The notes beneath the pieces were generated by a model. It worked only from the letters and a program-made list of their open reading frames with translations. It was not told the origin of the DNA and searched no databases. A program made the translations under genes and the position numbers. 64,000 nt of DNA. Origin: Escherichia coli. Lineage in GTDB: Bacteria; Pseudomonadota; Gammaproteobacteria; Enterobacterales; Enterobacteriaceae. The stretch lies in assembly GCF_044324875.1 (NCBI RefSeq), contig NZ_CP172185.1; one strand, 5' to 3'. Positions 27,197 through 56,539 of this stretch are shown piece after piece. The number at the start of each line of letters is the position of its first letter. Position 1 is the stretch's first letter.

Positions 27197-28216
27197 TCAG
27201 CAGCTTTCACGTAAACATAAACAGGGCTCAATGAATATCTGATTGCTCCAGTTACCTTCTTTAATTCGTTCCAGCAAAACATTTCCTGCTTCCAGACCAA
27301 TTTTCCTGTGAGGAACGGCCATTGTTGTTAATGATGGTTGGCAAACTTTGCTGACGTCACTGTCACCAAATCCTACTACGGCGAGCTCGTCTGGAACTTT
27401 GATCCGTCTTCGTTGACATTCATAGAGAACACCGCAGGCTAACTCATCTGACACACATACCAGGGCATCCAGTTCCGGCCATGCGAGCAAAAATTCCGGT
27501 AGTTGTGATGCTCCGGTGGAAAAAACAGGTGGCAGAGCAGCGTTAATAACACGGTTGGGAGACATATGATGGCGTAACATAGCTTTATACCATCCCTGTA
27601 AATGCTGCTGAAAGATCCACTGTTCCTGGTTAGCGCATAGCAAACCGATATTCTGATAACCACGTTGTACCAGCATATCCGTCAGCTCGAACATTGCTGC
27701 AACATTATCAATACCAATGTTGATATCTATCGGATCAGTACGAATGGCACCGATTTCTATAACAGGAATCGAGGCATTTTTGAGCAAGTGACGCACGGTA
27801 CTATTATGCTCAACACTAAGCAAAATTGCTGCAGCGATATTAGAAGCCAGCAGGGTTTCCAGCAGTTTTTCTTCTTGTTCCAGACGATGGCGTGACTCAG
27901 CCAGGATTATTTGATACCCCGCTGGTTGTAGCACATGTTGCAGCCCGGCAAACATTTCCGTGCATCCCGCTTCAGCCAGGTTTGGCACGACCATTGCGAT
28001 CGTGTGTGAAGATGCCGATGCCAGTGCGCTTGCAGTGAGGTTGGGCATATACCCTAATTCATTAACTGCGGCTTCAATCTTCTCCCTCAATTTATCTGAA
28101 ACTTGTTCGGGAGTGCGTAACGCTCTGGATACAGTCATTGTGCCAACTCCCGCGAGTTGCGCGACATCAGCAATAGTGACTTTACCTGTACTACGACGTT
28201 TTCGGGTTATTGCCAT
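27197..28216 (-). CDS. LacI-family transcriptional regulator
   Basis: 339-aa ORF with N-terminal HTH VTIADVAQLAGVGTMTVSRAL and periplasmic-binding-like effector domain; divergent from PTS operon. Confidence 0.9.
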   Translation of the reverse strand: MAITRKRRSTGKVTIADVAQLAGVGTMTVSRALRTPEQVSDKLREKIEAAVNELGYMPNLTASALASASSHTIAMVVPNLAEAGCTEMFAGLQHVLQPAGYQIILAESRHRLEQEEKLLETLLASNIAAAILLSVEHNSTVRHLLKNASIPVIEIGAIRTDPIDINIGIDNVAAMFELTDMLVQRGYQNIGLLCANQEQWIFQQHLQGWYKAMLRHHMSPNRVINAALPPVFSTGASQLPEFLLAWPELDALVCVSDELACGVLYECQRRRIKVPDELAVVGFGDSDVSKVCQPSLTTMAVPHRKIGLEAGNVLLERIKEGNWSNQIFIEPCLCLRESC

Positions 28217-28348
28217 ACAAAATCCTGCTCAGCGACTACATATGGAGATCTTTTATTACTTATCATCAACGGCTTCCTGCACTGCCAGTAGCAGAGTATA
28301 CCTCTTAATATCTGCCATAAGTCTGGATTTAATCAGTGAAATCTATTT

Positions 28349-28362
28349 TGATAGCGCTATCA
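28349..28362. promoter_or_regulatory. candidate LacI-family operator O1 (perfect palindrome TGATAGCGCTATCA)
   Basis: 14-bp perfect palindrome with central CG in the divergent intergenic region. Confidence 0.6.
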
Positions 28363-28382
28363 CAAATTCGAACAATACCTCC

Positions 28383-28396
28383 TGATAGCGCTATCT
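28383..28396. promoter_or_regulatory. candidate LacI-family operator O2 (TGATAGCGCTATCT, 13/14)
   Basis: near-identical second copy 34 bp downstream of O1. Confidence 0.55.
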
Positions 28397-28467
28397 TTGT
28401 GATATTGATCGCAGATATACCGTCGTTACTTGAATACATTCTGGTCATATAAATAAGAAATTAGGGG

Positions 28468-28917
28468 GTGGGAGTGCTTAATATCTGGCTTTCTGATTCA
28501 ACAATCGCATTACGAAAGAATGCCGCAACCTGGCAGCAGGCATTAGATATCTGTGCCAGACCGTTACTGGATGCAGAGATAATTACGACGGATTATCTCA
28601 GTGCGATAAAGACACAACATGAAAAACTGGGGCCTTATTATGTCCTGGCACCCGGGCTGGCCATGCCGCATGCCCGACCAGAAGAAGGGGCAAAAGGATT
28701 AGGTTTATCATTATTAAAACTTGAAGAAGGTGTCAGTTTTCATACAGAGGAATTTGATCCTGTAGATGTTATCATTTTACTTGCCGCACCAGACAAACAC
28801 AGTCATATCGAAATGATATCTGCACTGGCTGAGTTATTCTCCAGCGAAAAAGATTTACATGAATTGCATCAGGCTCGCAATGTGGAGGAAATAAAAAAGA
28901 TAATTTCACGGTTCTGA
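28468..28917 (+). CDS. PTS EIIA component, ascorbate (UlaC/SgaA)-type
   Basis: 149-aa ORF with conserved YYVLAPGLAMPHARPEEG phosphorylation-site region; GTG start. Confidence 0.8.
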   Translation: MGVLNIWLSDSTIALRKNAATWQQALDICARPLLDAEIITTDYLSAIKTQHEKLGPYYVLAPGLAMPHARPEEGAKGLGLSLLKLEEGVSFHTEEFDPVDVIILLAAPDKHSHIEMISALAELFSSEKDLHELHQARNVEEIKKIISRF

Positions 28918-28995
28918 TTACATTATAAATTCAGTCTTTTCACAACATTGCGCCGTTGCGTGATGGGACTTCTTCAACTTAAAATGGTGAATATA

Positions 28996-29268
28996 ATGAA
29001 AATTATGGCTATTTGTGGCTCAGGGCTTGGTAGTAGTTTTATGGTCGAAATGAATATTAAAAAAGTTCTGAAAAAAATGGATATAGAGGCGGAAGTGGAA
29101 CATTCCGATCTCTCATCAGCAACGCCAGGGGCTGCCGATTTATTTGTGATGGCCAAAGATATTGCTGCCAGTGCCAGCGTACCGGAAAGTCAGTTGGTGG
29201 TTATCAACAACATCATTGATATTAATGAACTCGAAACGCAACTGCGTAACTGGTTAGCAAAACAATAA
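28996..29268 (+). CDS. PTS EIIB component, ascorbate (UlaB/SgaB)-type
   Basis: MKIMAICGSGLGSS active-site Cys motif; start placed at the internal ATG rather than the ORF-track start 28948. Confidence 0.8.
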   Translation: MKIMAICGSGLGSSFMVEMNIKKVLKKMDIEAEVEHSDLSSATPGAADLFVMAKDIAASASVPESQLVVINNIIDINELETQLRNWLAKQ

Positions 29269-29284
29269 CCTTAATTGAAGCGAG

Positions 29285-30679
29285 GTGGATATGTTTATCC
29301 TTGAAACGCTGAATTTTGTTGTTGATATACTTAAAGTGCCCGCGATACTGGTCGGCTTGATTGCCTTAATTGGTCTGGTTGCCCAGAAAAAATCTTTTTC
29401 AGATGTTGTTAAAGGTACAATTAAAACTATTCTCGGCTTTATTGTACTGGGCGGTGGTGCCACTGTTTTGGTTGGTTCGTTAAATCCTCTTGGGAGTATG
29501 TTTGAACATGCCTTTAATATTCAGGGCATCATTCCGAATAATGAGGCTATTGTTTCTATTGCGCTGGAAAAATATGGCGCATCGACGGCCCTTATTATGG
29601 CATTTGGTATGGTGGCGAATATTATTGTTGCCCGCTTTACCCGCCTTAAATATATCTTCCTGACCGGACACCACACATTTTACATGGCCTGCATGATTGG
29701 TGTGATTCTGACAGTGGCTGGTTTTGAAGGTATATCACTGGTCTTTACCGGTTCTCTTATTCTGGGACTTGTGATGGCATTTTTCCCGGCATTAGCACAA
29801 CGCTATATGAAGCGTATTACGGGGAATGATGACATTGCTTTTGGTCACTTTGGCACTCTGGGATATGTACTTTCTGGCTGGATTGGCAGCGTGTGCGGTA
29901 AAGGTTCCCGCTCCACCGAAGAGATGAATTTGCCCAAAAATCTGAGCTTCCTGCGCGACAGTTCCATCTCTATTTCTCTTACGATGATGGTGATTTATCT
30001 GATCATGGCGATCAGTGCTGGTCGTGAGTTCGTTGAAAGCCAGTTCAGTGGTGGTCAAAACTACCTTGTCTACGCCATCATAATGGCCATCACCTTCGCT
30101 GCTGGTGTATTTATTATTCTGCAAGGCGTGCGTTTAATCCTTGCTGAAATAGTTCCGGCATTTACCGGGTTTTCAGAAAAGCTGGTGCCGAATGCCCGTC
30201 CGGCCCTCGATTGCCCGGTTGTGTATCCGTATGCGCCAAACGCAGTGTTAGTTGGTTTCTTGTTTAGCTTTTTTGGCGGTCTGGTAGGGCTATTTTTGTT
30301 GGGACAGATGAAACTGGTGTTGATTCTTCCGGGTGTCGTTCCTCACTTTTTTACCGGGGCGGCTGCTGGCGTATTTGGTAACGCTACGGGGGGACGTCGT
30401 GGCGCAATGATTGGTGCTTTTGCGAATGGCTTATTGATTACCTTCCTGCCAGTACTGTTATTGCCGGTTCTTGGGGCGATAGGCTTTGCTAATACGACCT
30501 TTTCCGATGCAGATTTTGGTGCTGTCGGCATCGTCCTCGGAAACCTGGCACGTTATCTCTCACCTTTTGCCATCACCGGACTTGTAGTAGCGCTATTTGT
30601 GCTGCTGGTTGCCTGGAACATTTTCGCCAGTAACAAAATCGCTGCCAAAGCGCAGAAGAAGAGCGGAGCCAAATCATGA
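29285..30679 (+). CDS. PTS EIIC permease, ascorbate (UlaA/SgaT)-type
   Basis: 464-aa polytopic membrane ORF resembling the UlaA family. Confidence 0.85.
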   Translation: MDMFILETLNFVVDILKVPAILVGLIALIGLVAQKKSFSDVVKGTIKTILGFIVLGGGATVLVGSLNPLGSMFEHAFNIQGIIPNNEAIVSIALEKYGASTALIMAFGMVANIIVARFTRLKYIFLTGHHTFYMACMIGVILTVAGFEGISLVFTGSLILGLVMAFFPALAQRYMKRITGNDDIAFGHFGTLGYVLSGWIGSVCGKGSRSTEEMNLPKNLSFLRDSSISISLTMMVIYLIMAISAGREFVESQFSGGQNYLVYAIIMAITFAAGVFIILQGVRLILAEIVPAFTGFSEKLVPNARPALDCPVVYPYAPNAVLVGFLFSFFGGLVGLFLLGQMKLVLILPGVVPHFFTGAAAGVFGNATGGRRGAMIGAFANGLLITFLPVLLLPVLGAIGFANTTFSDADFGAVGIVLGNLARYLSPFAITGLVVALFVLLVAWNIFASNKIAAKAQKKSGAKS

Positions 30680-31506
30680 ATGTTAAAGAATTGACTCAAT
30701 TTGCACGGGATATACGTATCCAGACGCTTAAATCATTAACTCATCTCGGCTTCGGTCATTATGGTGGCAGCATGTCGGTTGTGGAAACGCTGGCAGTGCT
30801 TTATGGCGCTGTAATGAAAATTGATCCTGCTGCTCCCGACTGGCCTGAGCGTGACTATTTTATCCTGTCCAAAGGACATGCCGGACCTGCTCTCTACAGT
30901 ACTCTGGCGCTGAAAGGCTACTTTCCACTGGAAGAATTAAGCACCTTAAATCAGAACGGAACCCGCTTACCAAGTCATCCGGATCGGCTAAAAACGTGTG
31001 GTGTTGATAGCACCACAGGATCGCTGGGGCAGGGGATATCCATTGCCGGAGGGATGGCGCTGTCGCATAAACTGGCGGGGCGCAAGAATCGGGTTTTTTG
31101 TATTGTCGGCGATGGCGAACTTAATGAAGGCCAATGTTGGGAAGCTTTCCAGTTTATCGCGCATCATCGTTTGAATAACCTCACTGTGTTTGTGGACTGG
31201 AACAAACAGCAGCTTGATGGTCAACTGGATGAAATTATTAATCCATTTGATTTGGAAGGAAAATTCCGGGCTTTCGGTTTTGATGTCGTGACAGTGAAGG
31301 GCGATGATATTGAGGGCTTGTTGAATGTAGTTAAACCTGTCCTGCCAGCTGAGGCCAGACCGAGAGTGGTCATTCTCGATAGCATTAAAGGGCAGGGGGT
31401 GCCGTGTCTCGAGCAACTCAGTAATTCTCATCACTTACGCCTCACAGAAGAGATGAAGGGGACGCTAAACGAAACAATTCGCCAACTGGAGGATATGCAT
31501 GATTAA
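30676..31506 (+). CDS. transketolase, N-terminal (thiamine-diphosphate-binding) subunit of a split enzyme
   Basis: 276-aa ORF with GHxG-type and GDGELNEG motifs; 4-bp overlap with EIIC gene. Confidence 0.85.
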   Translation: MNVKELTQFARDIRIQTLKSLTHLGFGHYGGSMSVVETLAVLYGAVMKIDPAAPDWPERDYFILSKGHAGPALYSTLALKGYFPLEELSTLNQNGTRLPSHPDRLKTCGVDSTTGSLGQGISIAGGMALSHKLAGRKNRVFCIVGDGELNEGQCWEAFQFIAHHRLNNLTVFVDWNKQQLDGQLDEIINPFDLEGKFRAFGFDVVTVKGDDIEGLLNVVKPVLPAEARPRVVILDSIKGQGVPCLEQLSNSHHLRLTEEMKGTLNETIRQLEDMHD

Positions 31507-32443
31507 TCTCGCACCGGCAGGACAAAAAGACAGCATTGAAATGCGCAAAGTTTATGCAGATTTTATCGCGCAACAGAGTAAAAACGTCAGTTCTGTCATT
31601 GCTCTTGAGGCTGATTTAATGAGTTCCATGGCAATGGACAGCGTGGCGCAGGATTATCCAGATCACGTCATTAATTGCGGCATTATGGAAGCCAATGTTA
31701 TCGGCACAGCTGCAGGGCTGGCCTTAACCGGGCGCAAGCCATTCGTGCATACCTTTACCGCATTTGCCAGTCGTCGCTGTTTTGATCAACTCTTTATGTC
31801 GCTTGATTACCAGGGCGCTAACGTCAAAGTTATAGCTTCTGATGCGGGTGTTGCTGCTTGCCACAATGGCGGAACACATATGTCATTTGAAGATATGGGA
31901 ATTGTGCGCGGGCTGGCGCATTCGGTGGTGATGGAGATGACAGATGCCGTAATGTTCAGCGATATCTTGCGTCAACTCGTTGCACTGGAAGGATTTTATT
32001 GGATTCGTACCATTCGGAAGCAAGCAGCGAGTATTTACGCACCAGGTACAACCTTTACAATTGGCAAAGGGCAGGTATTACGTGAAGGTACGGATGTCAC
32101 CTTAATTGCTAATGGCATTATGGTGGTGGAAGCCCTGGAGGCCGCACGTCAACTTGAGCTGGCTGGGGTAAGTGTAGCGGTGATTGATATGTTTACGCTC
32201 AAACCCGTTGATCGGATGTTAATTAAAAATTATGCCGAAAAAACAGGACGGATCGTAACATGTGAAAACCATAGTATTCATAATGGATTAGGTTCAGCGG
32301 TTGCTGAAGTGCTTGTAGAAACTTGTCCTGTGCCCATGCGTCGGGTGGGGGTTAAAGAGCGGTATGGCCAGGTTGGAACTCAGGACTTTTTACAGAGAGA
32401 GTACGGGTTAACCGCGCAAGATATTGGTAAGCGTACAGCCTGA
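31499..32443 (+). CDS. transketolase, C-terminal subunit; last codons replaced by IS66-family insertion
   Basis: 314-aa ORF; IS left end (32427) lies 17 nt before the stop, so the terminal GKRTA* is IS-derived. Confidence 0.85.
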   Translation: MINLAPAGQKDSIEMRKVYADFIAQQSKNVSSVIALEADLMSSMAMDSVAQDYPDHVINCGIMEANVIGTAAGLALTGRKPFVHTFTAFASRRCFDQLFMSLDYQGANVKVIASDAGVAACHNGGTHMSFEDMGIVRGLAHSVVMEMTDAVMFSDILRQLVALEGFYWIRTIRKQAASIYAPGTTFTIGKGQVLREGTDVTLIANGIMVVEALEAARQLELAGVSVAVIDMFTLKPVDRMLIKNYAEKTGRIVTCENHSIHNGLGSAVAEVLVETCPVPMRRVGVKERYGQVGTQDFLQREYGLTAQDIGKRTA

Positions 32444-32497
32444 ACCGTCTGGTCAGAATCTGACGAATTAGACAAAGTGGTGTCCACCAAATAAGTA

Positions 32498-32899
32498 GTG
32501 GGAACCAAAGTGTCAGATATGCAGAAAAATGTGACTCCCGGCAGGCGAAAAGGCTGCCCTAATTATCCTCCCGAATTTAAACAGCAGCTCGTTGCTGCCT
32601 CCTGTGAACCCGGGATATCCATCTCAAAACTTGCTCTTGAAAATGGCATTAACGCCAATCTGTTGTTCAAATGGCGACAACAATGGCGCGAGGGAAAGCT
32701 GCTATTACCTTCTTCAGAGAGCCCCCAGCTACTTCCTGTGACTCTCGATGCAGCTGCCGAACAGCCAGAATCGCTCGCAGAGGACCCGGAAACCCTCAGT
32801 ATCAGCTGTGAGGTAACGTTCCGGCACGGGACGCTCCGCTTCAATGGCAATGTCAGCGAAAAGCTCCTGACTCTGCTGATACAGGAACTGAAGCGATGA
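32498..32899 (+). CDS. IS66-family accessory protein OrfA
   Basis: 133-aa ORF with HTH-like ...NANLLFKWRQQWREGKL. Confidence 0.85.
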   Translation: MGTKVSDMQKNVTPGRRKGCPNYPPEFKQQLVAASCEPGISISKLALENGINANLLFKWRQQWREGKLLLPSSESPQLLPVTLDAAAEQPESLAEDPETLSISCEVTFRHGTLRFNGNVSEKLLTLLIQELKR

Positions 32900-33243
32900 T
32901 CCCTTTACCTTCCGGGACCAAAATTTGGCTGGTTGCCGGTATCACCGATATGAGAAATGGCTTCAACGGCCTGGCTGCGAAAGTACAGACGGCGCTGAAA
33001 GACGATCCCATGTCCGGCCATGTTTTCATTTTCCGGGGCCGCAGCGGCAGTCAGGTTAAACTGCTGTGGTCCACCGGTGACGGACTGTGCCTCCTGACCA
33101 AACGGCTGGAGCGTGGGCGCTTCGCCTGGCCGTCAGCCCGTGATGGCAAAGTGTTCCTTACACAGGCGCAGCTGGCGATGCTGCTGGAAGGTATCGACTG
33201 GCGACAGCCTAAGCGGCTGCTGACCTCCCTGACCATGCTGTAA
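32896..33243 (+). CDS. IS66-family OrfB
   Basis: 115-aa [34 protein letters not shown]...; 4-bp overlap with orfA. Confidence 0.85.
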
Positions 33244-33292
33244 ATCTCTTTATCCTGGTTGTCACAGAATAAGCCCGGTAAAATACGGGCTT

Positions 33293-34831
33293 ATGAACGA
33301 CATCTCTTCTGACGACATCTTCCTGCTGAAACAGCGCCTGGCCGAACAGGAAGCGCTGATCCACGCCCTGCAGGAAAAGCTGAGCAACCGGGAGCGCGAA
33401 ATAGACCATCTGCAGGCGCAGCTGGATAAACTCCGCCGGATGAACTTCGGCAGTCGTTCCGAAAAAGTCTCCCGCCGTATCGCACAAATGGAAGCCGATC
33501 TGAACCAGCTTCAGAAAGAGAGCGATACGCTGACTGGTAGGGTGTATGACCCGGCAGTACAGCGTCCGTTGCGTCAGACCCGCATCCGTAAGCCGTTCCC
33601 TGAATCACTACCCCGTGACGAAAAGCGACTGTTGCCTGCGGCGCCGTGCTGCCCGAACTGCGGCGGTTCACTGAGCTATCTGGGCGAGGATACCGCCGAA
33701 CAGCTGGAGTTGATGCGTAGCGCCTTCCGGGTTATCCGGACGGTACGGGAAAAACATGCCTGTACTCAGTGCGATGCCATCGTGCAGGCACCTGCACCTT
33801 CGCGGCCCATCGAGCGGGGTATCGCCGGACCGGGGCTGCTGGCCCGCGTGCTGACCTCGAAGTATGCAGAGCACACCCCGCTGTATCGCCAGTCAGAAAT
33901 ATACGGCCGGCAAGGTGTGGAGCTGAGCCGTTCACTGCTGTCGGGCTGGGTGGATGCATGCTGCCGGCTGCTGTCTCCGCTGGAAGAGGCGCTTCATGGC
34001 TATGTCATGACTGACGGCAAACTCCATGCCGATGATACCCCGGTCCAGGTACTGATGCCGGGTAATAAGAAGACGAAGACCGGGCGGTTGTGGGCGTATG
34101 TTCGTGATGACCGCAATGCCGGGTCAGCGTTGGCACCTGCAGTGTGGTTCGCTTACAGCCCGGACAGAAAAGGCATCCATCCGCAGACTCATCTTGCTTG
34201 CTTCAGCGGTGTGCTGCAAGCGGATGCGTACGCCGGGTTCAACGAGCTGTATCGCAATGGTGGGATAACGGAAGCTGCCTGCTGGGCTCATGCCCGCCGA
34301 AAGATCCACGATGTGCACGTCCGCATCCCGTCAGCACTGACGGAAGAAGCCCTGGAGCAGATCGGTCAGTTGTACGCCATAGAGGCGGATATAAGGGGAA
34401 TGCCGGCAGAGCAGCGGCTTGCTGAACGTCAGCGAAAAACGAAACCGCTGTTGAAATCCCTGGAAAGCTGGTTGCGTGAAAAGATGAAGACCCTGTCGCG
34501 ACACTCAGAGTTGGCGAAGGCGTTCGCGTACGCACTTAACCAGTGGCCGGCACTGACGTACTATGCGAACGATGGCTGGGTGGAAATCGACAACAACATC
34601 GCTGAAAATGCCCTGCGGGCGGTAAGTCTGGGTCGTAAAAACTTCCTGTTCTTCGGCTCTGGCCATGGTGGTGAGCGGGGAGCGCTACTGTACAGCCTGA
34701 TAGGGACGTGCAAACTGAATGACGTGGATCCAGAAAGCTACCTTCGCCATGTGCTTGGCGTCATAGCAGACTGGCCGGTCAACCGGGTCAGCGAACTGCT
34801 TCCGTGGCGCATAGCACTGCCAGCTGAATAA
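33293..34831 (+). CDS. IS66-family transposase OrfC
   Basis: 512-aa ORF with N-terminal leucine zipper, CCPNCGG zinc motif and DDE core. Confidence 0.9.
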
Positions 34832-35113
34832 CACATCCCCGTCAATACGGCCCTCGCTGTACGCTTACAGATATTGTGGCGGCAGCCAGAGAGCTATTGT
34901 AATTCATGGAGTTTGTTTACCATTCTGTTTTTCTTAAAAGTGAGTGTCTGTGCGGTCACTAAACTCGGTAATAAAGCAGTTCATTGCAGGATAAGAAGCG
35001 TTTGGTTGTGTCGTTTTACCGTAAGAACCGACCGCCGTATGTAGCCATTAAGCCAGTATTGGTAACGTAGGTGCCCACCTTTTCAATGTACTGCGCCCCA
35101 AATCTTGGACATC

Positions 35114-35893
35114 CTATGAAAAATGTTTAAGTCGATATTGAACCGGACTCATACCATCGAGTTTCTCTTTAATGCGATGGTGATTGTAGTATTCAATGTA
35201 ATCAATTATATCTTGCTTTAGATGATGTAACTTATTGTATTTATTTAGATAGTAACATTCTGATTTTAATGTACTAAAAAAGCTTTCCATTGCTGCATTA
35301 TCTAAGCAGTTACCACGTCGGGACATGCTTTGTGTTATGCCATTATCACTCAACCAACGTTGCCAACGAGGCATCTGATATTGCCACCCCTGATCACTAT
35401 GCAACAAGGGCTTATCGTCTTTATTGAGTTGTTCTACCGCATCTAATAGCATGCTCTTTACCATTGATGCTAATGGGCGCTCAGTAAGGTTATATGAGAC
35501 TATTTCTCCATTATACAGGTCCATGATTGGTGATAAATAGAGCTTCCTGCCATCGACCTTAAACTCAGTGACATCTGTTACCCACTTTTGATTTGGGCGG
35601 TCAGCATAAAATTGTCTCTTCAGTAAATTATTACAAGTTCGCCCCTGTTCTCCACGATAGGCACGGTACTTCTTGCGCCTGATAAGTGAGCTGATACCCA
35701 GTTCCTTCATTAACTTTCTGATGGTTTTACCATTAAGTAAAATGCCCTCGTTACGGCAGGCAAGTCTGATGCGTCGATAACCATAACGCCCTTTATGCTG
35801 ATGGTATATTCTCAATATTACTTGTTTAACAAGTTGATATGGATCTGGCGCATTAAGGCGTTTCACGTGATAGTAAAATGTACTACGTGGCAA
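35114..35893 (-). CDS. IS3-family transposase OrfB (DDE integrase core); probably expressed as OrfAB fusion by -1 frameshift
   Basis: 259-aa ORF with rve-type motifs; its frame stays open upstream into the end of orfA. Confidence 0.8.
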   Translation of the reverse strand: MPRSTFYYHVKRLNAPDPYQLVKQVILRIYHQHKGRYGYRRIRLACRNEGILLNGKTIRKLMKELGISSLIRRKKYRAYRGEQGRTCNNLLKRQFYADRPNQKWVTDVTEFKVDGRKLYLSPIMDLYNGEIVSYNLTERPLASMVKSMLLDAVEQLNKDDKPLLHSDQGWQYQMPRWQRWLSDNGITQSMSRRGNCLDNAAMESFFSTLKSECYYLNKYNKLHHLKQDIIDYIEYYNHHRIKEKLDGMSPVQYRLKHFS

Positions 35894-35952
35894 ATCAGCG
35901 ATAACCAGTAATTGTGATAATGGATGACATTGCCTTAACTCATTAATAATGA

Positions 35953-36453
35953 TTACTTTTTCTTTTGTTCCAATCGTAATTTTTCCTGAGCTAAGGCTTT
36001 CAGCTTTTTTAGATAAGCGTTCTCAACTCTCAGAAACTCAAGTTCTTCCCGTTCACTGATTGTCAGTTGTGTCGAACGATTTCGTTGATAAACAGCAGGA
36101 GTTTTCGGCCTCAAATCTTCCTTTTGTCCCTTCATCGAAAAATCAACCTCACTGTATTTTTTAATCCATTTGGATATGGTGTTAAAAGCAGGGATCCCAT
36201 ACTTCACTGCAGCTTCCCTTATAGAAAGAGAATTATCAATAACATCTCTGACCACATTCAATCTGAAGTTATCGTCATAACGTCTTTTTTGCCCAGTCAG
36301 TGTTTTTAATCCGTGCTTACGGTAAACATAAGCCCATTTCCTTACCGTGCTGGGGTCAATATTGTACATTTTTCCAACAGACTTCAAACTCAGCTCACCT
36401 TCCAGGTATTTTTCTGATACTTCCCTTTTGAATTCTAATGAAAATTTGCTCAT
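35953..36453 (-). CDS. IS3-family transposase OrfA (HTH)
   Basis: 166-aa ORF ending in coiled-coil EQKKK; G-AAA-AAG slippery-like run at its 3' end. Confidence 0.8.
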   Translation of the reverse strand: MSKFSLEFKREVSEKYLEGELSLKSVGKMYNIDPSTVRKWAYVYRKHGLKTLTGQKRRYDDNFRLNVVRDVIDNSLSIREAAVKYGIPAFNTISKWIKKYSEVDFSMKGQKEDLRPKTPAVYQRNRSTQLTISEREELEFLRVENAYLKKLKALAQEKLRLEQKKK

Positions 36454-36519
36454 ACGCTCCTCAGTTACAGATCTGGTGTCTAACTATTGGGGCGCACTTC
36501 ATCAAACTGGTGGACGCCT

Positions 36520-36695
36520 GTTATGGAGCAAAAACATTATCCGCAGAACCCCGCAGATCATTTTCAAATGAGTTAAACTTCAAATGGTTAAACTGGTTTT
36601 GCAACCAGGAGCCTCTGTTGCCCGTATTGCCCGGGAACACGATATCAATGATAACCTCCTGTTCAAATGGCTCAGACTCTGGCAGAACGTAAGGT
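36520..36695 (+). pseudogene. degenerate IS OrfA-like remnant (HTH transposase N-terminus, frame-shifted)
   Basis: two adjacent frames give ...RRSFSNELNFKW... and ...GASVARIAREHDINDNLLFKWLRLWQ..., typical of IS66/IS3 OrfA. Confidence 0.35.
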
Positions 36696-37548
36696 AAAGG
36701 GAGATGAAAAAGGCAATAGCAGAACTGAGTGACAGTGAAACCATTCTGGCGTACAGGGTTGGATGGTGAAACTGATAAAAAAACCCCTCTGAAAATTCTG
36801 TCAGAGGGGTGTAGTCAATAAGGGTGTCATATTCAACATGAAGATGTCTTCTGGGAATGTTTACATAGCAAATGCTTTCACTCCGGTAATTAATTTCCGT
36901 GATTAACTGCTTTCGATCAATAAAGGAATTGCAAAAGTGTGATCTTGTTCACGACATTGTGGATGATAATATGCCTGATGTCTGAATCCGGAAACAGTGA
37001 TCTGGCGGTTTCATGTGAAGTTGACGGATAAAAAATCCGCACGACCAGACAGACGTGCGGTTTACGAAATTCGTAACAAGAGGCTTTTCTACGGATCACG
37101 TGGTGCGTGCCACGTGAAATTTTTGTAGCGCAAAATGTGTGATGTGTAAATACAAGGAAGGAAAAAAGTTAAATCGGTGGAAGTCCATGCCTGCCACATG
37201 TATGTCTGCATTCCTCGTTTTGAACAGAATTCTCACCAGACATCGTGAATTTCTCATTCAATCATCAGAGATATTACCCAGGATTTTTATTGTTTTGTGA
37301 TAGCAGTACTTTAAATGTTCAGATGCTAAAATAAGCGCGCTTATTATAATTATAGTTATGATGTTTTATCTTTATGTATTTTAATGATTTTCTCGTCATT
37401 GCTTTTCTGCTGCTTAAATTGAGGGCGCATATTATACACAATAATATTCCTGGCATTATTAAATTAATAAAAGAGGATTCTTATCACTGTATTTTTGCTC
37501 CGCACTACCGTTCTGGCTGGTGAAGTAATAATACAGGAGAATAACAGA

Positions 37549-39096
37549 ATGCTTAAAAGACGTGATGCTTTTTTAAAGAAAAGCGCGCTGGCAGTGAGTG
37601 TGGCCCTGCTGCTCTCATCTCAGGCTCAGGCTCAGGATATTTTATTCGGACCGATTCAACCTGGCGAAGATAATAGCTTTCTTGTTGGAGATTCAGTAGC
37701 TGGCCGTTCGTCTGGTGACATAAGAAATGTATGGTTGGTGGGTGATAATTCTTTTTTATTAGACTCAAACAGGACTGTGCTTTTGGGGAATAATTCTGGT
37801 GTTGTGAGCTCTCCGGGAAGTGTGAGTCTGGGGCATGATGCACTTATTGCTGACTCTGAATGGGGGACTGTTGCAGGAAAAGAAGCGTCACTTATTTCTT
37901 CTCGTCAGAGCTCGGCAATTGGTGCGTTTTCATCTGTGCAGGATTCTACCAGTTCTGTAGCTCTGGGCCATGGCTCACAGGTGTCGGGAGAAAATAACGT
38001 GGTATCTGTTGGTGCCGGGCCTGAGGGATATGGAGAGAGTGTCAAAGGAGCACCGGAAACCCGCCGGATTATAAATGTGTCTGATGGTATCAATAACACA
38101 GATGCAGCGACGGTAGGGCAACTGAATGAACGATTTGATGATGCACAGGTCTTTTTGTTGCAGACGAATGAAAGAATTGACGAGACAGATAAACGTCTTT
38201 CAACAGTTCATGCTGAACTCAGCAGGGATATTATTGCAGGCACATCGGCAGCGGTGACGTATACAGATGTAACAGCGCTTGCACTTCAGGATGAGATAAA
38301 GGATGGGACGAACAAAGTACGTGATGAGTTGAAATCACAGGGAGACAGTCTGCGTGGTGAGATAGGCGGTGTATACAGAGATGCCCGTGCTCATACTGAC
38401 AGTCAGGTCACAGCAGTACGTGATGAACTGAAGGCAGAGGGAGACAGTCTGCGCGGTGAGATAGGCGGTGTATACAGAGATGCCCGTGCTCATACTGACA
38501 GTCAGGTTACAGCAGTACGTGATGAACTCAGCAGGGATATTATTGCAGGCACATCGGCAGCGGTGGCGTATACGGATGCATCTTCTCTTGCTCTTCAGGA
38601 TGAAATAAAAGAAAAAGCGGATGAAACAGTTCAGGTTTCCCGGGCTTATACAGATAAAAGTGTACGGGATGCCCGTAAAGAAGCGAAAAGCCAGGCAGAA
38701 CATCTCAGCGATGTGCTTGTGAAGAACAGGGCGCAGACGGATGCAGCAATAGCCTCAAATACAGCAGCGATAAGGAATAACAGTCATCGTCTGGATTTGA
38801 CGGAAGCCTGGCAGAAGATGGCGACAGAGAGAATGAATAATATGCAGGAGCAGATTAAAGAGAACCGGAAGGAGTTAAGGGAGAGTGCAGCCCAGAGCGC
38901 GGCACTGGCAGGTCTTTTCCAGCCATACAGTGTTGGAAAATTTAACGCGACAGCAGCCGTTGGTGGTTACCGTGATGAGCAGGCCATTGCGGTGGGCGTG
39001 GGCTACCGTTTCACAGAGAATGTGGCAGGAAAAGTTGCAGTTGCTGCAGGTGGGTCATCCGCATCGTGGAATGCTGGTGTGAATTTTGAGTTCTGA
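37549..39096 (+). CDS. trimeric autotransporter adhesin (YadA-like C-terminal anchor) with repetitive coiled-coil stalk
   Basis: start placed at ATG 37549 (AGGAGA 9 nt upstream; signal peptide [28 protein letters not shown]); C-terminus ...GVGYRF...AGVNFEF. Confidence 0.85.
38317..38514 (+). repeat. 2 x 99-bp in-frame near-perfect tandem repeat within the adhesin stalk
   Basis: units at 38317-38415 and 38416-38514 differ at a few positions; flanked by a ~95-bp dispersed repeat pair at ~38211-38306 and ~38521-38615. Confidence 0.85.
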
Positions 39097-39157
39097 CAGG
39101 TCAGGATTTAGATATCTGTCCCGGGGGGAGTCCCCCGGGATATAATGAGGTACAGAG

Positions 39158-39613
39158 ATGCTGGATATAATCCTGGCGACGAGAGATATTTATTTTGAAA
39201 AAGCCCTGCGAGAGATATTTGGAACCGTAAGCAGTCGAATCAGATATATAGAAGATGCCATATCAGACAGAAGAAGGGTGCAGTCAGGCAGGTCATTCAG
39301 ATATTATTTTGTATTCTGTGATGATGAGTATACAGATATTGTTCGTATTCTTTTTACCGGAGAGGCCTGCTGTATTCTGAATAAGTCGATGCTGAATCTG
39401 AGAGCGGCCGGAGGTGTGTTGACGCTGGAAGAGCGCAGAGCGGTACTGAACCGGTATTACAGAGGTTTAAGTATTGCGGAGATTACAGAAGAGACGGGGC
39501 AGAATGACAAGACGGTATACGGTCATCTTCGTCGTGCACTGCAGCGGTCTGGATTCCGGAAGGGGCGTTTTATAAAGGGGAGAGAAGCGGCGGGGGATTC
39601 AGGTGTTGAATAA
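39158..39613 (+). CDS. small HTH protein resembling sigma-70 region 4 / LuxR-type DNA-binding domain
   Basis: 151-aa ORF; LTLEERRAVLNRYYRGLSIAEITEETGQNDKTVYGHLRRALQR pattern; start uncertain. Confidence 0.5.
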   Translation: MLDIILATRDIYFEKALREIFGTVSSRIRYIEDAISDRRRVQSGRSFRYYFVFCDDEYTDIVRILFTGEACCILNKSMLNLRAAGGVLTLEERRAVLNRYYRGLSIAEITEETGQNDKTVYGHLRRALQRSGFRKGRFIKGREAAGDSGVE

Positions 39614-39900
39614 TGTATCTTATATTGTGATATCGGTGCTGCTGCTGTTATTTTTTGTTGTATTTGTGACGAATGGTTAAGAATAAAACATGAGTTGGTG
39701 ATTATCAGGACAGGTTGCTTGTATATGAAGATAACAAAGGCGGCATTTATTTTTGCGCTGTCAGTGTGGAGTGTTGCTGTGATATGTCTTTTATTATTTG
39801 TACTGGTTGTTCTGGGATAGCCATAGTGAAATAAAAAGCTGTCTGAATTAAATTATTTTGCACACATGTTTTAATTCTGCACTGAATTCAGAATGGGTAA

Positions 39901-50455: not shown

Positions 50456-51535
50456 TTACTGCATCATGACCTCACGAACGAAATCTTTTTTGAGCTGTGT
50501 ACTGTACGCTTTGCCATAAAACTCCACCGTGGGCTCCGGGATCTCATTCAGATCCGGACGGAGCTGTTTGTTCATCGGCGTGGAGCCGAAGACTTTACTC
50601 AGTGCATGTTGCGTTTCAGGCTGAATCAGCCAGTTGAGGAATAAGCGTGATGCCGCCGGATGTGGGCTGTTGGCGGCAATGGCAGCGATGTTACCGCCGC
50701 CAGGCATGCCAAACTCCGGTACGTAAAATTTCAGCCGCGAATTGATAGCCCCGGTTTTTTGTAGTCCGACAAGATGATCTTCCCAGGATGGTGTCAGCAT
50801 CAGCTCGCCGTCATTCAGGCGTGTCAGACTATCAGCACCGGAGGCCGTGCGGGTAATTTTGTCCTTATTAGCGGCAAACCACTGCCAGCCTTTCTGCCAG
50901 TTTTTCACCACTGCCGGGTCAACGCTCTCCGCTTCGCTGTTAAACGTGTCGCCCTGAGTAGTGACGATGCGCTGGATAAAGGCTTCCCCAGCGCCGCCGT
51001 TGTTCGGGTCGTTATAGCCGAACTTTTTCGGGTTGGCGTCGATAAAGCTCTGCAACTGCTCCAGCGTTTGTGGCAGCGCCCGGTCACCCATCTGCTGCGG
51101 GTCGTAAGCAAATCCGGTCTGGTTGCCCCAGAACGCCACGGCATAACCCTGGGTGTCAACGTTCTGAATCTGGTGAATGGCGTCGCCATAGCCCGGCAAA
51201 TCGTCCACCTTCGCCAGCGCTTTCGCTCCCATTGCCACTGGCAGTTGCGCAACAGACAAGGCGATAACATCTATTTTACCTTTTTTTTTCCCCGCTTCTG
51301 CCAGCAACTTGTTCACGTTTCCGTCGATATTCCCTTCCGGGATGCGCACCTTAACACCGTACTGCTGCTCAAAATCCTTCACAAAGCTGCGCCACTGCGG
51401 CTGTAAGTACCAGACGTTAAAGGTCACGCTGCCCTCTTTTTTCGCTTGGGCAATCAGGTCGGGGCTATCCGCCGCCGTTGCCAGCGAGCTGCACAGCAGG
51501 CCGCCCGCCAGAATCATCACTGTTTTTTTCATCAC
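50456..51535 (-). CDS. ABC transporter periplasmic substrate-binding protein
   Basis: 359-aa ORF with signal peptide; last gene of a four-gene ABC operon. Confidence 0.8.
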   Translation of the reverse strand: MMKKTVMILAGGLLCSSLATAADSPDLIAQAKKEGSVTFNVWYLQPQWRSFVKDFEQQYGVKVRIPEGNIDGNVNKLLAEAGKKKGKIDVIALSVAQLPVAMGAKALAKVDDLPGYGDAIHQIQNVDTQGYAVAFWGNQTGFAYDPQQMGDRALPQTLEQLQSFIDANPKKFGYNDPNNGGAGEAFIQRIVTTQGDTFNSEAESVDPAVVKNWQKGWQWFAANKDKITRTASGADSLTRLNDGELMLTPSWEDHLVGLQKTGAINSRLKFYVPEFGMPGGGNIAAIAANSPHPAASRLFLNWLIQPETQHALSKVFGSTPMNKQLRPDLNEIPEPTVEFYGKAYSTQLKKDFVREVMMQ

Positions 51536-51553
51536 ATTATCTCCTGTAAAAGG

Positions 51554-52390
51554 TCAGGCTTTTCCCGTGGATTGCGACAGATAGTTCCCCTTCAGCAACT
51601 TCTCAATGATGACCATCAGGATGACATTGGGGATCACCAGAATCATCGACACCACCGCCGCATCCGGGCGGACGAAGGAGTAGCCAAGGAAAGAGTAAAG
51701 AATGGTCGGAACGGTGATAAAGTCCGGCGCGCCCAGCACGTATGAGATGCTGAACTCTTCCAGGCTTCGCACCAGACAAAAAATCAGCGCCGCCAGGAAG
51801 CTCGGTTTCAGCAGCGGCAGATAGGCATTGCAGAAGGTGTCCCACGCGCCGGAGCCCAGGTCGCGGCTGGCGTCGATCAGATCCTGCGGCACCGACTTAA
51901 ACCCCGCAGACATAATGCGGATCGAATAGGGCAGCGTCAGTACCGTATGGCCGATAACAATGCTGATAAACGCGTTGTCGATATTGAGGTTGATCAGCAT
52001 GGCGCTGAAAAAAATCCCGATCAGCATCCCCGGCATCACCAGCGGGATCAGCGTCAGCATCTCCGCCACCGCCTTACCGCGAAAGGTCATGCGCCCGAAG
52101 GCATACGCGGTGGGTAGCGACAGCAGCAGGCTGGCGACCGCTACCGCAGGCGCAATGGTGTAGCTGTTGAACAGCGCCTCGGAAAGCGAAGTCTTTTCCC
52201 ATACCAGCAGCCAGCGGCTGAACGACAGCACGGGCGGGAAGATATCCGGGTAGCTCCACGGATGGGCCGGGTCAACCAGCGACCAGAGGATCGCCATGCC
52301 GAACGGCATGCCCAGCCAGATCAGATTAGCGACCACGAAGAAGATCAGCGAAATCGTCACCACCCGGCAACCGTTGGCAGTGTGGCTCAT
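51554..52390 (-). CDS. ABC transporter permease (second); start set at the downstream ATG
   Basis: the ORF-track start 52438 would add 16 residues (MSHTDYPVRHPQRRGQ) encoded by one copy of a 48-bp tandem duplication. Confidence 0.75.
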   Translation of the reverse strand: MSHTANGCRVVTISLIFFVVANLIWLGMPFGMAILWSLVDPAHPWSYPDIFPPVLSFSRWLLVWEKTSLSEALFNSYTIAPAVAVASLLLSLPTAYAFGRMTFRGKAVAEMLTLIPLVMPGMLIGIFFSAMLINLNIDNAFISIVIGHTVLTLPYSIRIMSAGFKSVPQDLIDASRDLGSGAWDTFCNAYLPLLKPSFLAALIFCLVRSLEEFSISYVLGAPDFITVPTILYSFLGYSFVRPDAAVVSMILVIPNVILMVIIEKLLKGNYLSQSTGKA

Positions 52391-52476
52391 TTGACCTCTC
52401 CTTTGCGGGTGGCGAACGGGGTAATCAGTGTGGCTCATTTGACCTCTCCTTTGCGGGTGGCGAACGGGGTAATCAG
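52381..52476. repeat. perfect 2 x 48-bp tandem duplication spanning the permease1 stop / permease2 start junction
   Basis: TGTGGCTCATTTGACCTCTCCTTTGCGGGTGGCGAACGGGGTAATCAG occurs twice back to back; contains RBS, ATGA stop/start overlap and first codons. Confidence 0.9.
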
Positions 52477-53301
52477 TGTGGCAATCAGCAACGTGCAGAT
52501 GGCCGCCGTGACCATAATGATCACCGCAATCACCGCCGCGTTATTCCACTCGCCGTACTCCATGGCGGTGGCCTGCATCAGCCGCGCCAGCGAGTAGGTG
52601 TTGCGTGGCCCGGCCACCGAGAAGAAGGCGAAGTCGCCCAGCGCGCCGATAAATACCAGAATCAGCGTCACCTGCACGGCGGGCAGCGTCAGCGGCACCA
52701 CCACGCCGGTAAAACTGCGCCAGCGGCTGGCACCGAGATTGCTGGCGGCGTCCAGCACGTCGTTACGGATGGCGTTGACTGCGCCGCCGACGAGGATCAG
52801 GGCGAAGGGCAGGTTTTTCCAGATTTGCAGGATAACCACGCCCCAGCCGAAGTCATCGTTCTGCATCCGCAGCGGCTCGCTGATAATCCCCAGCGCCAGC
52901 AGCAGTTCGTTGATAATGCCGTGATAAGCGACGATATTGACGAACAGAAACGCCGCCACCAGACCGGGGATAAACATCGGCGCACGCAGCACCGCGATAA
53001 TGCCCTCTTTATAGGCCATCGGTTTACGCAGCCACAGCGCCAGCGGATAGGCGAAAATCACCGAGCCGAACGACCCCAGCAGTGACACTTTCACTGAGTA
53101 GAACAGGGCGCTTTGCAACACTTCGTCCTGCAACATATTGCGCCAGTATTCCAGCGAGAAATTGCTGTCGCCTTCGATGTTGAACCAGCCCAGGCTCTGG
53201 ACGATCACCACATAAAACGTCGATCCCATCAGTAGTAGGATCGTGCCCAGCCCGCTGAGCATCAGCAGCCAGGCGACCGCATCATTGCGCCAGTTTTTCA
53301 T
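52435..53301 (-). CDS. ABC transporter permease (first)
   Basis: 288-aa polytopic ORF with permease EAA-like loop region. Confidence 0.85.
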   Translation of the reverse strand: MKNWRNDAVAWLLMLSGLGTILLLMGSTFYVVIVQSLGWFNIEGDSNFSLEYWRNMLQDEVLQSALFYSVKVSLLGSFGSVIFAYPLALWLRKPMAYKEGIIAVLRAPMFIPGLVAAFLFVNIVAYHGIINELLLALGIISEPLRMQNDDFGWGVVILQIWKNLPFALILVGGAVNAIRNDVLDAASNLGASRWRSFTGVVVPLTLPAVQVTLILVFIGALGDFAFFSVAGPRNTYSLARLMQATAMEYGEWNNAAVIAVIIMVTAAICTLLIATLITPFATRKGEVK

Positions 53302-54365
53302 GATACCGGCTCCAGAAAATGGATGGCGTTTTCCGCCAGACGGAAGCAGGCACTCTCGCCGGGGGCGACGGGCGGCTTTTTAATTAGATGTAAGCGGACC
53401 GATAACCCGCTGTCGTTGTGGCCCCAGGCTTCGGTGAGGTTGCCCATAAAGGCCATTTTGTCGAGCGTCAGGGAGAAGTGGTTGTTGCCTGCCTGAGGCT
53501 GGCTGACATACTGCGCATCTTCCGGTCGCCAGCAGATATAGCAGTGCTCTGTGCGTGGCGGCTGTACGGAATGCACATAAAACTCGCCGAGGGCACAGCG
53601 TACCCGGTAATAGCCCGGCTGCTCTGAGGGCGTGACCTGCGCGGTGTCGATATTGGCCGCGCCGATAAAGTCGGCCACAAAGCGGTTGGCCGGACGGTAG
53701 TAAATCTCTTCCGGTTTGCCTATTTGCTCAACATTACCGGCGTTCAGCACCACAATTTTATCCGACATCGCCAGCGCTTCCGCCTGGTCGTGTGTGACGT
53801 AGATCGAGGTGAGCTGATACTGCCGCTGGAGTTCCTTGATTTCAAAACGCACGCTTTCGCGCAGCTTGGCATCAAGGTTGGAGAGCGGTTCGTCGAACAG
53901 GATCACGTCCGGGCGGGTGATCATCGCCCGCGCCAGCGCCACGCGCTGCTGCTGGCCGCCGGAGAGCTGGGCGGGCATTTTCAGGCGCTGGCTCTCCAGC
54001 CCCACCTGCTTCAGCGCCTCCGCCAGCCGGGCCTGCTGTTCACTGATAGCGACTTTTTTCTGCTTCAGGCCGAAGCAGATGTTGTGTGCCACGTTGAGGT
54101 GCGGAAACAGCGCATAGGACTGGAAACACATGGCGGTATTGCGCTTTTCTGGCGGCAGGGCGTTGACCGTTTTATCGCCAATCAGAATGCGTCCGCTGTC
54201 CGGCTGGTGAAAACCGCCGATCATTTTCAGCAGGGTGGTTTTACCGCAGCCGCTCGGCCCAAGCAGGGTCACGAACTCCCCCTCTTCGGCGCAGAACGAG
54301 ATTTCCCTGGCGGCATAGAATTCGCCGAAGGTTTTGGTCACCTGTTCCAGAACCAGTTTTGACAT
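53298..54365 (-). CDS. ABC transporter ATP-binding protein (PotA/MalK-like)
   Basis: Walker [10 protein letters not shown], signature [14 protein letters not shown], Walker [12 protein letters not shown]. Confidence 0.9.
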
Positions 54366-54580
54366 GAGTCTCTCTTCTATCGGTTAAAAAGATGATTATT
54401 AAATTTACATACTAAACATTAAATTTATGTGACACAGATCCTTAAAGCTAAAAAATGATCTAAATATCAAATTAAAAGCATATAAAACAATGGATTAACC
54501 ATAAAATAACAAAAACATCTTTCACATTTAAATTTAAGTAGTAAAGTTAATTACCATCTTACATTCGAGAGGAAAAGAAG

Positions 54581-55411
54581 ATGGCGTTTAACTTTCACCG
54601 GGCGGCAGAGGGGATCGTGCTGGCCAACAGCCACCGAGGTTATTCCAGCTGCGCGCCGGAGAACACATTCCCGGCCTTTGAAGCCGCCCGCCTGGCGGGA
54701 ACCCACTGTATTGAAATCGATATCCACCTGACGGCGGATAACCAACTGGTGGTCACGCACGATCACCGTATCGACCGGGTATCCACCGGACACGGATTTG
54801 TGGAGCAGATGACGTACCCGCAGCTGCTGGCGTGCGACTTTGGCGTGAAATACCATCCGTCGTTTGCCGGAACGCGCATCCCCTTGCTGGCGGACGTGCT
54901 GCGCTGGGCGGTGGAAAACAGCATGGGGCTGATTGTTGAGGTCAAACAGCGCAACCGCCATGACGAGTTTGTGGCGGCGCTGGTCGCACTGCTGCATGAG
55001 CATCTGGATGCCCTCGGCCATATCCAGTTGCTGGGCTTCAACCATGTGCTGATCAACCGGGTGAAGGCGCAAATCCCGCAACTGGCGTTACAGGTGGTGA
55101 CGCTGGAGCGCTACAATAACCAGCTTGCGGCGGTACAGCAGTCCAATGCCGGATGCGTCTGCTTTGAGTTCGAGTTCGCCCATATCGACGACCTGCGGGC
55201 CTACAAAAATGCCGGACTGGGCGTGCGGATGTATCTGCATGAAATGAAAAACGGCATGACGCCGCTGGAGCAGTACGACTATAAATTCGGCTGTGACAGT
55301 CGTCCGGTGATTATCGGCTGGATGCAGGCGGGGCTGATTGATATGCTCAGCCACGATGATATTCCGTATTTGCAGGGACTGATTGAAGAAGCAGGCCTGC
55401 GCTGGAACTAG
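54581..55411 (+). CDS. glycerophosphodiester phosphodiesterase-family protein
   Basis: 276-aa ORF with HRG...ENT..AF...EIDIHLT motifs. Confidence 0.8.
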   Translation: MAFNFHRAAEGIVLANSHRGYSSCAPENTFPAFEAARLAGTHCIEIDIHLTADNQLVVTHDHRIDRVSTGHGFVEQMTYPQLLACDFGVKYHPSFAGTRIPLLADVLRWAVENSMGLIVEVKQRNRHDEFVAALVALLHEHLDALGHIQLLGFNHVLINRVKAQIPQLALQVVTLERYNNQLAAVQQSNAGCVCFEFEFAHIDDLRAYKNAGLGVRMYLHEMKNGMTPLEQYDYKFGCDSRPVIIGWMQAGLIDMLSHDDIPYLQGLIEEAGLRWN

Positions 55412-55426
55412 AAAAATAAGGACACC

Positions 55427-56539
55427 ATGAACGCCCACTCTGAACGCCTTGAACTACGTGGTTCGCAGCGCCTGCTGCTGGAACTGATCCGTCTCCACGC
55501 CCCGGTGACGCGGGCTGAACTGGCACGGCTGTCGGGACTGACGGCGGGGGCGATCACCCAACAGTGCCGAGAGCTGATGTTCTCCGGCCTGGTGGTGGAA
55601 GGGGAGCGCAATACCGGGCAGCGCGGCCAGCCGTCGCTGCCGTTGCGCCTTAACCCCGGCGGCGGTTGTGCTATCGGGTTGTCGTTCAGTCCCGGTTTTA
55701 TCGATATGACGGTGGTCGATCTCAGTGGTCGCCAGCTGCTGTCGCTTTGCGAAGCACATCAGGAGAATCAGCCACTGGAGGCCTCTCTCGCGCAGATCAA
55801 AACCTTGGTGGAGAAAATGCTGAAAAAGCGCCAGCTCCAGCACGCACGTATTCTCGGCATTGGCTATGCAGTGCCCGGATTTCTGAAAGCGGATGGTCGC
55901 AAGCGCCACAGCGTACCGTGGCTGGAGAGCTGGCGTGAGGTAGATCTCCAGCAGGCGTTTGCCGACAACCTGCCGTGGCCGACGTGGGTGGAAAATAATG
56001 CCAACGCCTCGGCGGTAGGTGAACTGTACAGCGGCAAATGGAATGCGTACAGCGATCTAACCTTTATCGACCTTGGCTACGGTATCGGCGCGGGTATTAT
56101 CTCCGGGAATAAAATGCTACGCGGCGGGTTCTGCAATGCCGGTGAAGTCGGGATGGCGTTTCCATCCGGTACACCGCGCCCGTCGTATAAGGATTTGCTT
56201 GCCACACTGGAGCGTGAAGGATTCAGTGAAACTAAGCTACCGGAGCTGATAGCCGGGCAGCACCCACTGCTGGAAAGCTGGTTTGAACGCTGTCGTGGCC
56301 AGGTGGAGCAGACGCTCTTCAGCTGTGTGCAGTGGGTAGACCCGCAAATCATCGTACTCGGTGGCGCGATGCCGAAACCGATTATCAGTCGTCTGGTGCA
56401 GGAACTGAATCAACTGATGGAAGCCTGCCTCGATCCCAACCGCCCCAGAGTGAAGTTAGCTGCCTCTTCGATGGGAGCACAGAGTGCGTCATGCGGCGCG
56501 GCGATGCTCCCGTTGTATAAGGTGATTAATAATGGATAA
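55427..56539 (+). CDS. ROK-family (NagC/Mlc-like) transcriptional regulator
   Basis: 370-aa ORF with N-terminal HTH and ROK sugar-kinase-like fold motifs. Confidence 0.8.
   Translation: MNAHSERLELRGSQRLLLELIRLHAPVTRAELARLSGLTAGAITQQCRELMFSGLVVEGERNTGQRGQPSLPLRLNPGGGCAIGLSFSPGFIDMTVVDLSGRQLLSLCEAHQENQPLEASLAQIKTLVEKMLKKRQLQHARILGIGYAVPGFLKADGRKRHSVPWLESWREVDLQQAFADNLPWPTWVENNANASAVGELYSGKWNAYSDLTFIDLGYGIGAGIISGNKMLRGGFCNAGEVGMAFPSGTPRPSYKDLLATLEREGFSETKLPELIAGQHPLLESWFERCRGQVEQTLFSCVQWVDPQIIVLGGAMPKPIISRLVQELNQLMEACLDPNRPRVKLAASSMGAQSASCGAAMLPLYKVINNG

Follow-up and report, generated by a model that had tools for sequence, protein, structure and literature searches.

A complete ISEc8 element in the last codons of a predicted split-transketolase gene of Escherichia coli

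The operon and its interrupted last gene

In this work, a complete copy of ISEc8 (IS66 family) was located at 32427..34868 on the plus strand of the window, the 64-kb stretch of E. coli DNA that was analysed as a whole. The element, 2,442 bp in length, is co-oriented with the operon in which it lies. Upstream, a gene for a LacI-family regulator is transcribed divergently (27197-28216, minus strand). It is followed on the plus strand by genes for PTS IIA (28474-28917), PTS IIB (28996-29268), an ascorbate-type PTS IIC (29291-30679) and the transketolase N-subunit (30676-31506). These assignments come from NCBIfam together with the annotation of two IS-free genomes. This part of the operon (27197..31506) is intact, and its proteins show 99.7-100% identity without gaps to those of E. 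coli TUM9803. The gene for the transketolase C-chain, which carries the insertion, is the last gene of this LacI-regulated ascorbate-type PTS and split transketolase operon. The locus belongs to an IS-rich accessory island in which gene decay is common. We had presumed the operon to be perhaps a known virulence locus, c3405-c3410 of the island PAI-metV of CFT073. The paper retrieved on that island gives c3405-c3410 as 'PTS system, maltose/glucose specific' with no mention of transketolase, and the link was dropped.

Homologues of the C-chain carry the Pyr (PF02779) and TKC (PF02780) domains, and the separate N-chain gene directly adjoins. Against the model NF004559, the C-chain aligned with positions 315-624 of 627. 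The transketolase chains scored 231 where the NCBIfam equivalog cut-off is 488, a shortfall that arises because each chain spans just half of the model. Residues 12-315 of the C-chain could be aligned with PDB 6YAJ (E = 1e-70), and the alignment includes the terminal YGLTAxDxVAA helix. In the split-gene transketolase of Carboxydothermus hydrogenoformans (PDB 6YAJ/6YAK), the C-terminal chain likewise consists of Pyr and TKC, and the enzyme forms an alpha2-beta2 tetramer (PMC7661550). Unlike that enzyme, the one from E. coli shares a LacI-regulated operon with the genes of an ascorbate-type PTS. Judged by these domain and structure alignments, the interrupted gene encodes the C-terminal chain in a predicted split (two-chain) transketolase.

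The insertion point lies after codon 309 of this 317-codon gene. As now read, the gene runs from 31499 to 32443 on the plus strand and encodes 314 amino acids, of which residues 1-309 are native and the rest is the IS-encoded ending GKRTA*. Both the GKRTA codons and the TGA with which the fused reading frame ends (32441-32443) come from the left inverted repeat of the element. The displaced native 3' end was found on the same strand at 34877..34900, where the second and third bases of the V310 codon are followed by codons A311-L317 and a TAA stop. The alignment to IS-free alleles continues there, and the first base of V310 is the last base of the target duplication. A preliminary description of this DNA had stated that the native eight C-terminal residues were replaced by GKRTA*, and that removal of the element with one duplication copy would restore an ORF ending ...QDIVAAARELL*. 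Both statements hold: the present ORF ends ...QDIGKRTA*, and the ORF with 32427-34876 removed has 317 amino acids and exactly the predicted ending.

Identity and boundaries of the element

Over its full length (1-2442), the 2,442-bp interval is 100% identical to copies of ISEc8 on many chromosomes and plasmids of E. coli. The annotated copy on pAPEC-O1-ColBM (NC_009837.1) is one example of such a match. The name ISEc8 is used here in the sense of the RefSeq label 'IS66-like element ISEc8 family', and it was with copies so labelled that the interval was compared. ISEc8 was first described in E. coli O157:H7 and has an ISfinder entry; the ISfinder criterion for isoforms is DNA identity above 95%. 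The G+C content of the interval is 56.6%, compared with 46.6% for the window. A match to ISEc8 is present in 4,229 of 5,426 complete E. coli genomes and a near-full-length copy in 3,334, with a median of 4 and a maximum of 46 matching places per genome. In the window, the element is present as a single copy, and a search of the 64 kb found no second or partial one.

Three genes are encoded on the plus strand of the element. The first, tnpA (32498..32899), encodes an IS66 accessory protein and can be read as an ORF of 133 aa from GTG at 32498. In ISEc8 copies RefSeq starts the gene at ATG 32519 (126 aa), and for an ISEc22 copy it uses the GTG (133 aa). For TnpA, the 127-aa translation of 32516-32899 reached 97.6 bits with NF047595, for which the NCBIfam cut-off is 74. 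The stop of tnpA and the start of tnpB overlap (ATGA) at 32896-32899. The second gene, tnpB (32896..33243), encodes an IS66-family accessory protein of 115 aa with 120 bits against NF033819 (curated cut-off 50). The TnpB of ISEc8 has no relation to the TnpB nucleases of IS605. The third gene, tnpC (33293..34831), encodes an intact IS66-family DDE transposase of 512 aa, which scored 457 bits with NF033517 (curated cut-off 180). Its Pfam domains are arranged in the order LZ_Tnp_IS66 (PF13007), zf-IS66 (PF13005), DDE_Tnp_IS66 (PF03050) and DDE_Tnp_IS66_C (PF13817). Both tnpA and tnpB lie upstream of the transposase gene, as membership of the IS66 family requires. The earlier assignment to this family is thus borne out by all three proteins, each scoring above its curated NCBIfam cut-off, as well as by the identity to ISEc8. 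The element is ISEc8, a member of the IS66 family, and every feature of membership that could be tested was found in it. As its reading frames are intact and identical to those of widespread copies, this copy is apparently functional.

The ends of the element are equally well defined. The left terminal inverted repeat (32427..32452, plus strand) and the right one (34843..34868, minus strand) share 13 perfectly matching base pairs, beyond which the repeat extends imperfectly, with 20/26 positions matching. The inverted ends reported in the preliminary description were found as GTAAGCGTACAGC at 32427-32439 and its reverse complement at 34856-34868, where the last 13 bp of the element read GCTGTACGCTTAC; no other exact copies occur in the 64-kb window. 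Outside these ends lie two perfect copies of the octamer AGATATTG on the plus strand, the left at 32419..32426 and the right at 34869..34876, so the 8-bp duplication is intact, as had been claimed. The left copy runs from the third base of the Q307 codon through D308 and I309 to the first base of codon 310. In IS-free alleles the octamer is single. The alignments to the IS-free strains IMT5155 and TUM9803 stop at window position 32426 and restart at 34869, and the two blocks overlap by 8 bp of the reference, from which it follows that the empty site holds the octamer only once.

The boundaries were further checked with 16 other insertions, namely 13 copies with 100% identity that were chosen irrespective of their flanks and three obtained with a junction query. 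All 16 start with GTAAGCG, end with CGCTTAC and are bordered by their own perfect 8-bp duplication, each different from the others. The earlier expectation that the terminal repeats would match IS66-family ends is therefore confirmed. Copies of ISEc8 elsewhere agree with this one in their termini, their three ORFs and the length of the target duplication, and only the insertion site differs. ISEc22, IS679, IS682 and similar IS66-family elements of E. coli also share the tnpA-tnpB-tnpC order, the GTAAGCG termini and the 8-bp duplications, and the left end of ISEc22 in strain AL.H8 is identical to that of the window element over the stretch compared. However, the transposase region and the right end of ISEc22 and similar elements diverge, and the 100% match of the window element is to ISEc8, not to ISEc22.

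A target-site preference was considered and rejected. It had been suggested by the top junction matches, which extend 9-21 nt into the flank and among which ISEc22 of strain AL.H8, with the duplication AGATATTC, was met. The apparent resemblance of targets arose because these matches had been ranked by flank similarity. The 13 copies ranked by IS identity alone show no consensus among their duplications.

An assembly artefact, in which a repeat copy of ISEc8 was misplaced into the locus, has to be weighed against these boundaries. The multi-copy occurrence of ISEc8 in E. coli speaks for it, and such repeats are a classic source of misjoins. A misjoin, however, would not yield a perfect 8-bp duplication of a target that is single in the empty site, and both junctions fall exactly at the true termini of ISEc8. 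Moreover, the fused gene lies on a chromosome-sized assembly of 5.75 Mb. We therefore regard an artefact of this kind as highly improbable.

Direction and age of the insertion

Comparison with IS-free alleles had been set beforehand as a test of whether the fused C-terminus could be ancestral. The related genomes proved to be IS-free, and none carries the junction. The reconstructed empty site occurs in 132 complete E. coli genomes and is 100% identical in most of the matches listed. On the other hand, none of the 5,426 complete genomes of E. coli has a place that covers a 500-bp probe for the left junction. Likewise, the junction 30-mer CGCGCAAGATATTGGTAAGCGTACAGCCTG was absent from 100,044 GTDB species-representative genomes and from JGI metagenome contigs, while a 32-mer of the empty site, used as a control, was present in eight metagenome contigs. 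At the protein level, the fused 314-aa product (WP_395762561.1 / XJR46239.1) is on record from one E. coli contig and the native 317-aa protein from at least 1,000 contigs. All of the 113 full-length homologues with 75-100% identity end in ...I[VL]xAAxxLL. The native ending is kept in Escherichia (E. fergusonii, E. albertii), Cedecea, Serratia, Mangrovibacter and other genera.

Since the empty site is widespread, the junction is found in none of the searched sets and the homologues keep the native ending, the IS-free allele is best read as the original state, and the insertion as derived and strain-specific. The opposite direction would require that the IS-bearing allele is ancestral and that IS-free alleles arose by precise excision of the element with one duplication copy. 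Precise excision of insertion sequences is a known process of low frequency, but no specific finding speaks for it here. The 132 complete genomes with an empty site, set against none with the junction, and the native ending shared across species and genera both contradict this reading. The closest relatives of the locus, which have the same adjacent IS3-family element and no ISEc8, contradict it as well. An ancestral IS-bearing allele is thus improbable to the point of being negligible.

The derived insertion is also probably recent, where 'recent' refers to rarity combined with sequence identity, as ISEc8 copies are near-identical everywhere and identity alone therefore dates poorly. The proposal of a recent, simple transposition in the preliminary description agrees with the distribution of the junction and the empty site and with the intact duplication. 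The neighbouring element allows the event to be placed in a relative order. An IS3-family element with a 4-bp duplication (TCAA) occupies 35087-36501, 218 bp downstream of ISEc8. Because this element is common to TUM9803 and GF4, both of which are without ISEc8, ISEc8 was likely the later arrival.

Taken together, we consider it very highly probable that, in one lineage of E. coli, a complete, apparently functional ISEc8 inserted by transposition at the 3' end of the gene for the transketolase C-subunit. The joins between ends and target, the 8-bp target duplication and the new position of the stop codon are seen directly in the sequence. The preceding steps can be proposed from knowledge of the family, whose features are said to have been set out by Han et al. 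in 2001 and in ISfinder. The IS66 DDE transposase, aided by TnpA and TnpB, would have joined the GTAAGCG... ends to the target, with the target strands cut at an 8-bp stagger, and repair of the gaps would have produced the duplication of AGATATTG. DDE transposases in general make staggered target cuts, the repaired gaps of which become the target duplication. To our knowledge, it is not settled whether IS66-family elements move by a copy-out or a cut-out route.

Consequences for the enzyme, the operon and the strain

In the fused gene, translation leaves the native sequence after I309, reads the five IS codons (GKRTA) and stops at the TGA within the left inverted repeat. The native tail VAAARELL (V310-L317) is lost in this way, and in this respect the C-chain of this strain differs from that of the C. 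hydrogenoformans split transketolase. Across 34 diverse homologues that were aligned, residues I309, A312, A313 and L316 never vary, and L317 hardly does. In an AlphaFold model, residues 306-316 form a terminal helix; the pLDDT is about 96 for the last residue block but only 71.7 on average over the model. This conserved helix, at the end of the TKC domain, has lost about two-thirds of its length, the invariant A312, A313 and L316 included.

Reduced stability or assembly of the fused subunit is plausible in view of the alignment and the model. An impaired enzyme, which the preliminary description had suggested, is plausible too, although loss of the TKC helix would not in itself imply loss of catalysis. 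In C. hydrogenoformans, the segment with the YGLTAxDxVAA motif belongs to the TKC domain, whereas the cofactor is bound by the PP and Pyr domains (PMC7661550). From the loss of about two-thirds of the conserved helix, we infer that the accessory enzyme would at most be weakened or destabilised. We know of no catalytic role assigned to the TKC domain, and E. coli transketolase without this domain reportedly retained activity in the work of Costelloe et al. from 2008. For these reasons, the fused enzyme may even work normally.

It might be supposed that the insertion was not neutral and was selected for inactivating or re-tuning the PTS-transketolase operon. The removal of invariant residues from the terminal helix and the position of the locus in an IS-rich island with common gene decay would accord with this. 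However, the insertion is found in a single genome, with neither recurrence nor parallel insertions at the gene in the 5,426 genomes, and a site eight codons before the stop is a poor one for inactivation. The lack of target preference among the 13 unbiased ISEc8 copies is, in turn, consistent with random insertion. Selection for this insertion is accordingly considered very unlikely.

As for expression, the preliminary description had allowed for altered expression downstream. This is unlikely, given that the gene is the last of the operon, and no polar effect on operon genes is expected because none of them lies downstream. A scan of 32300-35200 returned no promoter-like site and one terminator-like site, which lies on the opposite strand inside tnpA. 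No terminator-like site was thus found on the operon strand in that interval. The scan yielded less than shuffled sequences did, for which reason it carries no weight on outward promoters or on a terminator of the operon. Transcription entering the element from the operon is a separate matter. Read-through from the LacI-regulated promoter could make the tnp genes sugar-inducible, because ISEc8 is co-oriented with the operon, only 54 nt separate the stop codon of the fused gene from the first tnpA start codon, and no terminator-like site was found there on the operon strand. We hold this to be an unlikely proposal, together with its second option, a GKRTA-bearing subunit of altered stability or assembly. 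Such read-through, if real, would make this copy of ISEc8 a nutrient-responsive source of transposition.

The insertion itself is a routine mobile-element polymorphism, that is, a textbook simple insertion of a very common and known IS, in which the site alone is new. The fused allele is already present, unflagged, in public annotation, and its entry in RefSeq should be flagged as an IS-fused allele. RefSeq annotates the 314-aa product as a plain 'transketolase family protein'. The insertion offers a clean and datable marker that is private to one lineage and probably younger than the IS3-family element, and it could be used for typing. For the strain, it means that a predicted accessory sugar-catabolic enzyme would be slightly altered, which has little import beyond strain-level annotation. 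For the element, it points to fairly recent activity of ISEc8 in this poultry-associated E. coli background.

Target duplications of ISEc8 and ISEc22

In E. coli AL.H8, a copy of ISEc22, an IS66-family relative of ISEc8, lies in an unrelated gene and is flanked by the duplication AGATATTC (positions 3002-3009 and 5451-5458 of that locus). This duplication is the same at 7 of 8 positions as that of the ISEc8 copy in the transketolase C-subunit gene of the window. However, no target consensus was found among the duplications of 13 unbiased ISEc8 copies, so a target preference was rejected as the reason for the likeness, which we put down instead to the ranking by flank similarity.

The operon and the neighbouring IS3-family element

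For the operon in which ISEc8 resides (28474-32443), one 83%-identical homologue, from Pseudocitrobacter, bears the UniRef name 'Apulose-4-phosphate transketolase subunit B', a tentative hint that a branched or rare sugar may be the substrate of its PTS. The stretch 35087-36501 (minus strand), 218 bp downstream of ISEc8, is a 1,415-bp element of the IS3 family that is intact, with orfA at 35953-36453 and orfB at 35114-35893. It ends in the inverted repeats TGTACTGCGCCCCAA / TGAAGTGCGCCCCAA and is flanked by the 4-bp duplication TCAA. Among the 132 complete E. coli genomes with the IS-free locus, only TUM9803 and GF4 also carry this element.

Surface proteins and the accessory island

The plus strand at 37495-39096 encodes a YadA-like trimeric autotransporter adhesin; the gene contains internal direct repeats of ~114 bp at 38198-38609, and the size of its product differs by strain, with 533 aa in the window versus 515 aa in TUM9803 and 452 aa in IMT5155, another comparison genome. 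It is followed by an IS256-family transposase gene (39901-41106, minus strand), whose counterpart in TUM9803 is IS1414-like. The region around this transposase is an IS-rich mosaic accessory island, and positions 36500-56500 are covered to more than 80% in just one complete E. coli genome. Farther along, at 59908-63732 on the plus strand, an autotransporter of 1,274 aa with a beta-barrel domain is encoded, and relatives have an annotated S6-family peptidase within the matching region. Both this autotransporter and the polysaccharide-export protein gene (9791-11470, minus strand) are in keeping with an island for virulence or fitness in E. coli of the extraintestinal or avian type.
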